Of a stretch of 48,627 nucleotides of DNA, positions 44,112 through 44,336 are shown piece after piece; positions within the stretch are counted from its first letter, which is position 1; each line of letters starts with the position of its first letter. A program made the translations under genes and the position numbers. The stretch is from contig DFBV01000018.1 of assembly GCA_002366755.1 (NCBI GenBank), positions 15,508 to 64,134 on the forward strand, in the 5' to 3' direction. The stretch is from Anaerolineales bacterium UBA3071. Lineage in GTDB: Bacteria > Chloroflexota > Anaerolineae > UBA3071. The notes under the pieces were generated by a model. It worked only from the letters and a program-made list of their open reading frames with translations. It did not search any database and was not told where the DNA came from.

Positions 44112-44336
44112 CTACTCGCAGAAGAGATCGCAGCAATTGTAGGGCAAGCAGTCGGGATGGTTGCAGCAATAGTAGCACCACACTTCGGGTGGGCCACCAT
44201 TCACCAATCTCCACCAGCAGGTCGTGTCCGGACCCACGTCCCAAGCGGTGGCCTGTGGGGTGAGCGCAGGACTCCCCGCAAGTAGCAGAACTCCCAGTAC
44301 GAGTGCCAACAGAACGAACCTCTTCGCCTTTGTCAT
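44112..44336 (-). CDS. Secreted Cys-rich peptide (74-aa precursor, 8 Cys in a 43-aa mature part)
   Basis: GGGAGGAG SD overlaps the anti-sigma stop. Signal peptide MTKAKRFVLLALVLGVLLLAGSPALTPQATA. Mature part WDVGPDTTCWWRLVNGGPPEVWCYYCCNHPDCLPYNCCDLFCE. Confidence 0.7.
   Translation of the reverse strand: MTKAKRFVLLALVLGVLLLAGSPALTPQATAWDVGPDTTCWWRLVNGGPPEVWCYYCCNHPDCLPYNCCDLFCE

Follow-up and report, generated by a model that had tools for sequence, protein, structure and literature searches.

Exported peptides under dedicated extracytoplasmic function (ECF) sigma factors have been described in a few systems. The ECF sigma/anti-sigma pair MibX/MibW controls the exported antimicrobial microbisporicin (PMC4973701), and systems of this type, which also include planosporicin with PspX/PspW, follow a feed-forward model, the exported peptide bringing about release of the sigma factor (PMC4973701). 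In the HXS anti-phage system, HxsA is exported after maturation by a radical S-adenosylmethionine (rSAM) enzyme (PMC13128918). Here we examine a 48,627-nt stretch of Anaerolineales bacterium UBA3071 (contig DFBV01000018.1; "the window" below means this whole stretch), in which the gene of a small cysteine-rich peptide, peptide A, stands directly behind the genes of an ECF sigma factor and a putative anti-sigma protein.

Other described systems share single traits with this locus. Sublancin (with BdbA/BdbB) and pediocin (with PedC) are disulfide-dependent bacteriocins whose clusters encode a thiol-disulfide oxidoreductase together with ATP-binding cassette (ABC) transport genes, and conotoxins combine a conserved signal sequence with a hypervariable Cys-rich mature region. 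Bacterial peptides that are small, secreted, rich in disulfides and governed by dedicated regulators are already known as a general kind, to which the family described here belongs. Chloroflexota are abundant in sediments, digesters and hot springs and are rarely cultured; to our knowledge, almost nothing is known about their secreted peptides or their ECF sigma regulons.

Judged by their sequences, mini-proteins of the WCYxC(C)NHPD(C) pattern are a real, previously unnamed family and peptide A is a bona fide member of it. The family is new, unannotated and lineage-restricted, and its operon arrangement is so far undescribed. As to function, we tentatively take peptide A for an ECF-linked, dispensable, exported, bacteriocin-like effector, a reading that we regard as quite possible though short of probable. 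Below, handles in L denote related loci and contigs, and handles in P denote related peptides.

Peptide A is an intact member of a rare family

The gene of peptide A and the open reading frame (ORF) that follows it are as follows.

44112-44336, minus strand: peptide A, intact family member, 74 aa, ATG start, 43-aa mature domain
43650-44003, minus strand: 117-aa ORF just after A, with sub-threshold matches to GIY-YIG (E 0.014) and T5orf172 (E 0.028)

A strong ribosome-binding site (RBS), GGGAGGAG, is located a few bases ahead of the ATG of peptide A. The signal peptide, MTKAKRFVLLALVLGVLLLAGSPALTPQATA, is of the Sec type, with MTKAKR, a Leu/Val-rich core and ..ATA before WDV, and the 43-aa mature part contains eight Cys. 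In a HMMER scan, peptide A matched P0001 at 1.4e-19, the two being identical or 97% identical. Compared with its orthologs, the gene showed a ratio of non-synonymous to synonymous differences per site (pN/pS) of 0.45-0.49. A simple terminator scan gave nothing informative 3′ of the gene, and an Rfam scan of the window matched no RNA family.

We counted as family members those peptides that gave a significant match to a mature-domain profile, A8, built from eight sequences, and that carry the invariant W-C-Y-x-C-x-N-H-P ... L-x-C-E. A word-indexed search with peptide A recovered only a 97%-identical protein and P0002, a truncated allele of the A-type peptide. When 1.84 billion cluster representatives were scanned exhaustively by HMMER with a profile of A and B (B being a second ORF of the window, described below), four clusters came up; the eight-sequence profile yielded 11 clusters from 5.8 billion sequences, and a DNA-pattern scan of Joint Genome Institute (JGI) metagenomes added four further family loci. 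With about 11 sequence clusters among some 15 billion proteins, the family is very rare. All carriers with a named organism are Anaerolineae or Anaerolineales metagenome-assembled genomes (MAGs), the rest being unassigned metagenome contigs. Purifying selection acts on the intact genes of the family (pN/pS 0.22-0.49 at pS 0.26-0.75). An N-terminal Lys/Arg region and a hydrophobic core were present in 16 of 16 intact peptides, namely 12 family members and four other Cys-rich peptides from the same neighbourhoods, and the best 15-residue hydropathy in intact members was 2.0-3.5. One variant, P0011, comes from a 30-kb JGI contig: this predicted protein of 89 aa joins the middle of an anti-sigma outer domain (..VDFPIREPAYL) directly to an A-type signal peptide and mature part, and it is apparently another deletion allele of the A locus.

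An earlier interpretation of the window, made from the DNA letters without database searches (the sequence-only reading), had not recognised the WCYYCCNHPDC motif from any known bacteriocin or toxin family. This agrees with our searches, in which peptide A had no Pfam, NCBIfam or PDB match. The peptides gave nothing meaningful against Pfam (E up to 5) and NCBIfam, and the sole match of a sequence-profile search of the PDB with the family was a chance one to Draxin (E 0.55). An AlphaFold2 (AF2) model of peptide A, computed from an alignment of six sequences, reached a predicted local distance difference test score (pLDDT) of 84 and describes a three-stranded sheet, with predicted strands at 8-15, 21-27 and 37-42. 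Foldseek found nothing below E 7 for this model in the PDB, small peptides being a weak case for Foldseek.

The peptide gene follows a sigma/anti-sigma pair and can be lost without it

The operon in which peptide A resides and its promoter-like motif comprise the following features.

45254-45808, minus strand: ECF-type sigma factor (Pfam Sigma70_r2 2.3e-13, Sigma70_r4_2 2.7e-10)
44347-45195, minus strand: putative single-pass anti-sigma protein, 282 aa, with a C-terminal DUF4367 (LolA-like) domain that is a weak match (E 3.6e-4)
45955-45980, minus strand: promoter-like motif RAYACTTY-N12-GTMTWT upstream of the sigma gene, common to five divergent loci
46503-46528, plus strand: second, perfect copy of the promoter motif, facing a divergent DUF11-protein gene

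The sigma factor, 176 aa long in the gene calls of related contigs, scored above the cut-off with the NCBIfam model sigma70-ECF (96 bits); its best specific match was to the BldN family, at 126 bits and below cut-off. The gene of the putative anti-sigma protein always follows the sigma gene, and its C-terminal domain is conserved, the weak DUF4367 match recurring in the orthologs of L010, L012, L013 and L028. A scan of the genome collection with a profile of the anti-sigma protein found only four loci. Wherever upstream DNA exists, genes with the A-type leader lie 10-17 nt after a sigma/anti-sigma pair. The full trio of sigma, anti-sigma and peptide was observed in the window and in L001-L003, L010, L021, L022, L023 and L028; shorter contigs hold part of it, L012 with a C-terminal fragment of the sigma factor and L011 and L016 with the anti-sigma gene only.

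The promoter-like motif precedes the sigma gene in the window, L010, L021, L022 and L023, and it has two matches in the window against 0.11 expected. It resembles sigma-W-type ECF promoters. The gene faced by the second copy starts at 46613 and runs off the end of the window; it encodes a large secreted protein (>929 aa in L006) whose only Pfam match is DUF11, and from the position of the motif it may belong to the same regulon as the sigma factor.

We also observed loci from which the peptide is missing. In the Anaerolineales MAG contigs L017/L018, a clean 1171-bp deletion removes both A and the 43650-44003 ORF, while the anti-sigma proteins are 99% and 96% identical. In L019 the whole cassette of peptide, TlpA-like gene and second peptide is absent, and sigma and anti-sigma are kept.

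Cysteines are lost and gained in pairs

The number of Cys after the signal peptide is even in all 16 intact peptides (6, 8 or 10). C32 and C38 are absent together in the NHPD-LPPGCH subtype (P0006, P0008, P0009 and P0013). The B-type peptides (P0004, P0010 and that of L024) are without C27 and one of the C37/C38 doublet, the lost one being assigned as C37, and an insert Cys and a C-terminal Cys are gained together in P0004, P0010, L024 and P0013. Since cysteines are lost and gained in pairs and their counts are always even, disulfide bonds are likely in the family peptides. The pattern is consistent with a map in which C27 would pair with C37 and C32 with C38, two further bonds falling among the invariant C9, C23, C26 and C42, and it argues for Cys-Cys bonds over thioethers or a metal site.

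Fragment B, peptide C and the probable rearrangement of a second slot

Family genes occur in two kinds of position. Those with the A-type leader stand after the ECF sigma and DUF4367 anti-sigma genes, and those with a second leader type stand after TlpA-like genes or beside genes of substrate-binding proteins (SBPs) or FtsX; members of the second kind in L009, L024 and L025 have no sigma or anti-sigma gene nearby. The window shows this second slot in an apparently rearranged state, with the following features.

32224-32421, minus strand: B ORF as first read, a 65-codon GTG ORF whose extension to 32421 is non-homologous
32227-32352, minus strand: B, the homologous stretch, a leaderless 3′ fragment that keeps the final 42 codons of a P0004-type gene
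39560-39868/39877, minus strand: peptide C, 102/105 aa, with a B-type RBS and signal peptide and a unique 64-aa mature domain
39958-40521, minus strand: membrane-anchored TlpA/ResA-like thiol-disulfide oxidoreductase (Pfam AhpC-TSA 5e-18, Redoxin 6e-14)
40828-43353, plus strand: insertion sequence (IS) element with a 253-aa ORF and the gene for a 569-aa DUF772/DDE_Tnp_1_6 transposase; it separates the A operon from the TlpA-C genes

The likeness of A and B, noted already in the sequence-only reading, is real: 16 of 25 residues are identical across the motif WCY(Y/H)C.NHPDC..CDL(F/Y)CE (BLASTP, E 6e-9), the DNA of the two aligns too, and tblastn of A against the whole window returned B at E 1.5e-9. 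The motif occurs at only these two places in the window. The further claim that A and B are unambiguous paralogs does not extend to function, B being a leaderless 3′ fragment. Of its 42 codons, 38 are identical to P0004. Against L009, the B region is 87% identical from window position 32352 downward, and this match continues beyond the stop codon to cover 456 nt of the SBP gene, so that the homology takes in the last 3′ 126 nt of coding sequence; upstream of 32352 no similarity to L009 was found at all, and the 23 codons from the GTG to that point are unrelated.

We considered B as a functional leaderless peptide and rejected this. B has no signal peptide (best 15-residue hydropathy 1.2, N-terminus without Lys/Arg), an in-frame stop lies directly upstream of its ORF, no Shine-Dalgarno-like GGAGG precedes the GTG, in each of three independent assemblies the gene caller passed over it, and the similarity breaks off abruptly. 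It is also without the insert Cys (Met-Cys in P0004) that accompanies the C-terminal Cys in every intact B-type member. Change in the retained codons relative to P0004 is mostly synonymous (pN/pS 0.17; pS 0.43, pN 0.07), which fits a recent truncation or continued use; we favour a relic. Intact B-type genes, each with a signal peptide, were found in L009 (P0004) and L024. Both lie ahead of an ortholog of the SBP gene at 29608-32184, the same SBP1 ortholog that the B fragment precedes, and the L009 gene sits after a TlpA-like gene.

The mature part of peptide C consists of 64 aa with exactly eight Cys and eight Trp, as the sequence-only reading had counted. Its membership in the family by sequence was tried and rejected: A and C gave no BLASTP alignment, C matched the family profile at E 0.29 only (hhalign), and a word-indexed search with C recovered C itself and nothing else. 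Its RBS and signal peptide (92 nt, 39790-39881) are 83-84% identical in DNA to the genes of L009 and L024, the similarity ending before the cleavage site. At the protein level, the leader of C matches those of P0013, P0004, the L024 peptide and a 96-aa peptide of L010 (E 2.5e-10 to 4e-4; 178 kb searched). Second-slot leaders share 51-61% identity and carry at least four unrelated or hybrid mature domains, those of P0004/P0010, P0013, C and the L010 96-aa peptide. Because its RBS and signal peptide match those of B-type genes in the same slot, C is best described from the sequence as a leader-sharing positional replacement behind the orthologous TlpA-like gene.

In the simplest reading of these alignments, an ancestral order of TlpA-like gene, leader with B-type mature part, and SBP gene would have been broken in this lineage by about 7.4 kb. 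This segment holds the mature region of C, an SBP gene, the body of an rSAM gene, a 66-aa precursor and another SBP gene. The TlpA-like gene of the window is the ortholog of the gene directly after the A-type peptide in L010 (75% DNA identity over 473 nt), and by this comparison the peptides linked to TlpA and to the sigma factor appear to be halves of a single module, contiguous in L010 and split here by the IS element. At the position of this element, L001, a related contig, instead carries its second sigma/anti-sigma pair.

The window also has two copies, at 29222-29445 and 40533-40743 (78-90% identity), of a non-coding element about 230 nt long. This duplication, the IS element and the split rSAM gene described below reflect the same history of rearrangement. 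One copy lies ahead of the TlpA-like gene and the other ahead of an rSAM 5′ relic and an SBP gene. The element opens with a sigma-70-like TTGACA-17-TAGAAT, after which comes an extended leader. Rfam returned no match for it, and none of the related loci that we fetched contains it.

Modules downstream of the peptides

The genes that follow the A-type peptide differ among loci, and three arrangements were observed. In the first (L021, L022, L023, L011 and L012), a full-length gene of an HxsB-like rSAM/SPASM protein (479 aa) starts about 55 nt after the peptide gene; in L021 and L022 it is followed by an HxsA3-like precursor and then by a two-domain SBP lipoprotein. In the second (L010), the peptide is followed by a TlpA-like oxidoreductase, a second Cys/aromatic-rich peptide with a signal peptide, and FtsX/ABC genes. 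In the third (L028), there come a truncated rSAM gene (194 aa), a DsbA-like gene, another Cys-rich peptide and an SBP. The corresponding genes in the window are these.

35634-36836, minus strand: HxsB-like radical SAM/SPASM gene without its first 78 codons (codons 79-479 at 36836-35637)
29106-29186, minus strand: displaced relic with rSAM codons 1-27, 6.5 kb from the rSAM body
35330-35530, minus strand: 66-aa HxsA3-like precursor with leader KKVTDFIVLEEGNIGRK, a hydrophobic segment and core CVHDNIHNNYHTNQHTDVCE
26387-29140, 29608-32184, 32639-35299 and 36866-39439, all minus strand: four paralogous lipoproteins of 857-917 aa

The best NCBIfam match of the rSAM protein is HxsB, at 306-320 bits and below the cut-off of 370, followed by PapB, CbpB and SCIFF-type thioether maturases. 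The leader of the 66-aa precursor matches HxsA3 at E 2e-5, its 24 bits comparing with a cut-off of 65, and the core CVHDNIHNNYHTNQHTDVCE has His at every fourth residue. The L021 and L022 orthologs keep the leader and have very different Cys/His/aromatic cores. Judged by sequence and neighbourhood, this precursor is the likely substrate of the rSAM enzyme. In each of the four lipoproteins, SBP_bac_1 occurs twice in tandem and a Cys pair is found at the C-terminus; their genes have no permease genes beside them. Such SBP genes also flank Cys-rich peptide genes in L009, L021, L022, L024 and L028.

Oxidoreductase genes beside the peptides are TlpA-like in L010, L009 and the window and DsbA-like in L028 and L009. 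For the TlpA-like protein of the window, the NCBIfam MauD/ResA matches were sub-threshold. FtsX/ABC genes are neighbours in L010, L019 and L025. Further, unrelated small ORFs with a signal peptide and a Cys/aromatic tail were seen in L009 (7139-7432, 8 Cys), L028 (3162-3392, 6 Cys) and L010 (10961-11251, 10 Cys). Each of them adjoins a DsbA- or TlpA-like oxidoreductase gene, which suggests a wider habit of pairing Cys-rich peptides with dedicated oxidoreductases in Anaerolineae. The 97-aa Cys-rich peptide of L009 showed no similarity to the family profile, and the 96-aa peptide of L010 matched it at E 0.0015 with a probability of 17%, a borderline result that leaves its kinship unproven.

Function of peptide A

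The constant spacing after the anti-sigma gene, the promoter motif, the Sec signal with the Cys pattern, and the oxidoreductase and FtsX/ABC neighbours led us to regard peptide A as the exported, disulfide-stabilised output of a sigma module. It would be a Sec-exported mini-protein of about 43 residues with four disulfides, sharing a transcript with the ECF sigma and membrane anti-sigma genes and so produced when the sigma factor is active. A TlpA- or DsbA-like extracytoplasmic oxidoreductase would aid its folding, and in some genomes the neighbouring FtsX/ABC pump could serve export or self-protection. The second slot behind the oxidoreductase would have a conserved RBS and signal peptide with a swapped mature domain; in this genome it would have been rearranged, its old mature half left as the dead fragment B, 7.4 kb downstream, and a new mature domain, that of C, now placed behind the old leader.

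Because sigma and anti-sigma persist where the peptide is lost, and because the truncated allele P0002 exists, we see in the peptide a cargo or effector that can be dispensed with, more than a component that signalling requires. The mix seen in the second slot (leader kept, mature domain swapped, relics, strain-level presence or absence) has the usual look of competition loci, and it is this likeness that made us choose a bacteriocin-like effector. Peptide A would then be a dispensable extracellular output of the module, bacteriocin-like or otherwise antagonistic. What the sequences show is the integrity of the gene, the features of a signal peptide, purifying selection, the conserved place in the operon, the covariation of Cys in pairs, the anatomy of the split gene and the polymorphism in presence and absence. 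The export, disulfide bonding and sigma-dependent expression of peptide A, and above all its antagonistic function, are what we infer.

Several observations weigh against a bacteriocin-like effector. Peptide A shows no likeness to known bacteriocins or toxins in sequence or fold. The A-type mature core is strongly conserved, which is less typical of antagonists and suits the role of a conserved partner just as well. The anti-sigma protein is putative, being assigned by position, topology and a DUF4367 match below threshold; for its outer domain, an AF2 model from a single sequence was unusable (pLDDT 34), and the LolA-like label stays at the level of the weak Pfam match. The motif of the window also reads as a sigma-70-like GTGACA-17-TATAAT, and as it fits this consensus as well as the ECF type, the sigma factor may or may not act on its own promoter. 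In the window, the TlpA-C genes have their own promoter-like repeat element and no copy of the sigma-linked motif, and the FtsX/ABC genes lie about 30 kb away. Finally, Anaerolineae are often anaerobes, so that extracellular disulfide formation is not guaranteed.

The conserved core would also suit a peptide that acts as an extracellular ligand or co-sensor of the anti-sigma protein, binding the LolA-like DUF4367 domain and either releasing or restraining the sigma factor in an auto-inducing or feedback circuit. We consider this, the main rival reading, unlikely. The peptide gene does keep its 10-17 nt distance to the anti-sigma gene across lineages in which the anti-sigma proteins are only 36-45% identical, and in L010 and L012 an identical peptide travels with an identical anti-sigma outer domain in spite of a different anti-sigma N-terminus. 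LolA-like domains bind hydrophobic ligands or partner proteins, as in the GerS/LolA context, and MibW with microbisporicin is a precedent for auto-induction (PMC4973701). On the other side, sigma and anti-sigma remain intact (96-99% identity) where the peptide gene is deleted, as they also do in L019, and the second-leader members of L009, L024 and L025 do without a nearby pair. That the trio is a self-contained peptide-signalling circuit, serving as an ECF autoinducer or in kin recognition, with the second slot as a variable 'pherotype' or as effector cargo, appears to us rather more doubtful still.

The match of the sigma factor to the BldN family, below cut-off as it is, bears on another reading. 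BldN controls chaplin and rodlin genes in Streptomyces, and peptides of this family might be structural or surface-layer components like these, in an envelope-remodelling ECF regulon that would include the secreted DUF11 protein faced by the second motif copy. We judge this improbable: the peptides have no hydrophobic chaplin-like domain and no Pfam match, and the family is extremely rare and patchy among near-identical strains, which would be unexpected for a core envelope component.

The rSAM genes raise the question of whether A-type peptides are precursors of ribosomally synthesised and post-translationally modified peptides (RiPPs), with Cys cross-linked to thioethers by the rSAM/SPASM enzyme as in sactipeptides or ranthipeptides. 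The full-length enzyme gene close behind the peptide in five loci and the similarity of the enzyme to thioether maturases speak for it, as does the C-x3-D spacing (CNHPD) of A, which presumably resembles PapB targets. Pairing with an rSAM gene is not obligate, though: the peptide is intact and under purifying selection where this gene is absent (L010, L016/L029), truncated (L028) or split and displaced (window). Moreover, the N-terminus is a classic Sec signal and not a RiPP leader, the HxsA3-like precursor after the rSAM gene in L021, L022 and the window is the more obvious substrate, and paired changes with even counts fit Cys-Cys bonds, not Cys-to-backbone links. A, B, C, P0004 and P0013 matched no NCBIfam or Pfam model, those of curated sactipeptide or ranthipeptide precursors included, and we find this explanation very improbable. 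Least probable of all is an extracytoplasmic metal or redox role, with Cys/His ligands (CCNHPDC) and in company with Sco/TlpA-like proteins and the His-rich HxsA3-like peptide next door, for although the invariant N-H-P-D is flanked by cysteines and the TlpA-like neighbours show weak SCO1-SenC and MauD similarity, no known metal-binding family was matched, and the paired Cys changes and even counts suit disulfides better than a metal site, in which the loss of two ligands would not be tolerated.

Peptide D and other genes of the window

A fourth ORF, D, had been placed with A, B and C in one family of exported peptides by the sequence-only reading. It lies in a different setting.

25760-25954, minus strand: D, candidate ATP-grasp (graspetide) precursor, probably 64 aa from Met51, ending at 25760 with the tail GPPWQWDCEDDYYCD
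24584-25636: ATP-grasp gene beside D (TIGR04187 3.9e-80, 269 bits against a cut-off of 350; Pfam ATPgraspMvdD 2.8e-11)
25660-25700, minus strand: strong GC-rich stem-loop GGAGGGAGACAGCC...GGCTGTCTCCCTCC between D and the ligase gene

D is located upstream of the MvdD-type ATP-grasp ligase and an ABC exporter, and it matched the GRASP_targ model TIGR04186 weakly (E 0.0022, 18.1 bits against a cut-off of 25). From this context, D is a separate candidate graspetide precursor of a system different from that of A and B. As a member of the A/B family it was rejected, with E 0.044 against A over 23 gapped residues and E 0.26 against the family profile. Transcription attenuation at the stem-loop could determine how much precursor is made relative to the ligase.

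All four ORFs are present where they had been reported, and the family of four exported members reduces to A, which is real and predicted to be exported: B is a fragment, C shares the leader only and D is unrelated. In their mature parts, C and D are not alignable with A and B, leaving one true pair by sequence in the window. The neighbours named in the sequence-only reading were confirmed: a TlpA/ResA-like gene of the thioredoxin fold is found just upstream of C, and the ECF sigma and putative anti-sigma genes upstream of A. The ending in acidic/aromatic Cys motifs that had been attributed to all four is a matter of composition, not of a motif. Rare relatives of A do exist in other contigs, with the ORF conserved under selection; C and D were not joined to them.

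Two more genes of the window were recorded.

18502-21408, minus strand: 968-aa fusion of HAD hydrolase, APH phosphotransferase and streptomycin-type adenylyltransferase
12010-12468, minus strand: gene of a 23S rRNA-intervening-sequence-family protein, wedged between FtsX and ABC ATPase genes

Significance and comparison with known systems

Secreted peptides and ECF sigma regulons are little studied in Chloroflexota, and the family gives a handle on the output or sensing of one ECF system of Anaerolineae. It is compact, unannotated and tied to a specific sigma/anti-sigma pair, and it comes with a testable predicted disulfide map; the predicted four-disulfide scaffold of 43 residues is small, presumably stable, and open to synthesis and assay. 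The locus is also a natural example of the rebuilding of a peptide cassette, with leader reuse, displaced 3′ fragments, a split rSAM gene, an IS element and clean strain-level deletions, and it cautions against counting motif-bearing ORFs as functional paralogs.

Compared with class IIa bacteriocins, no member has a YGNGV box or a double-glycine leader (sequences inspected), and no Pfam bacteriocin family was matched, which sets the peptides apart from that class. The likeness to HXS concerns the genes beside the Cys-rich peptide, not the peptide itself. The neighbouring rSAM protein scores best against HxsB, and the 66-aa peptide matches the HxsA3 leader (TIGR03978, NF038309). Unlike in HXS, both scores are below the curated cut-offs, and the repeats are H-x-x-x-H or H-x-N (HDN/HNN/HTN/HTD), not H-x-S; HxsC or a second rSAM gene and an HxsD-like gene were found in no locus, and these neighbours are therefore Hxs-like, not members.

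Like the conotoxins, second-slot peptides have a conserved leader, here with unrelated mature domains behind it. They differ in being bacterial and few, and in a diversification by recombination and rearrangement (split gene), not by point-mutation hypervariability. As in the sublancin and pediocin clusters, a small exported peptide, with disulfides inferred here, is found with a thioredoxin-fold oxidoreductase and ABC transport genes; the Sec-type signal, the four predicted disulfides in 43 residues, the lack of sequence similarity and the lack of an identified immunity gene separate the family from them.

With MibX/MibW and PspX/PspW the locus shares a dedicated ECF sigma factor and a membrane anti-sigma protein that are genetically tied to an exported peptide. 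The peptides of those systems are lanthipeptides from large biosynthetic clusters of Actinobacteria, whereas the peptide here, judged by its gene, is an unmodified-looking Sec substrate encoded inside the sigma/anti-sigma operon of Anaerolineae. The putative anti-sigma protein carries a LolA-like DUF4367 domain, unlike the MibW and PspW systems. MibX/MibW with microbisporicin is the closest regulatory precedent, and there the roles of effector and auto-inducer can coincide.

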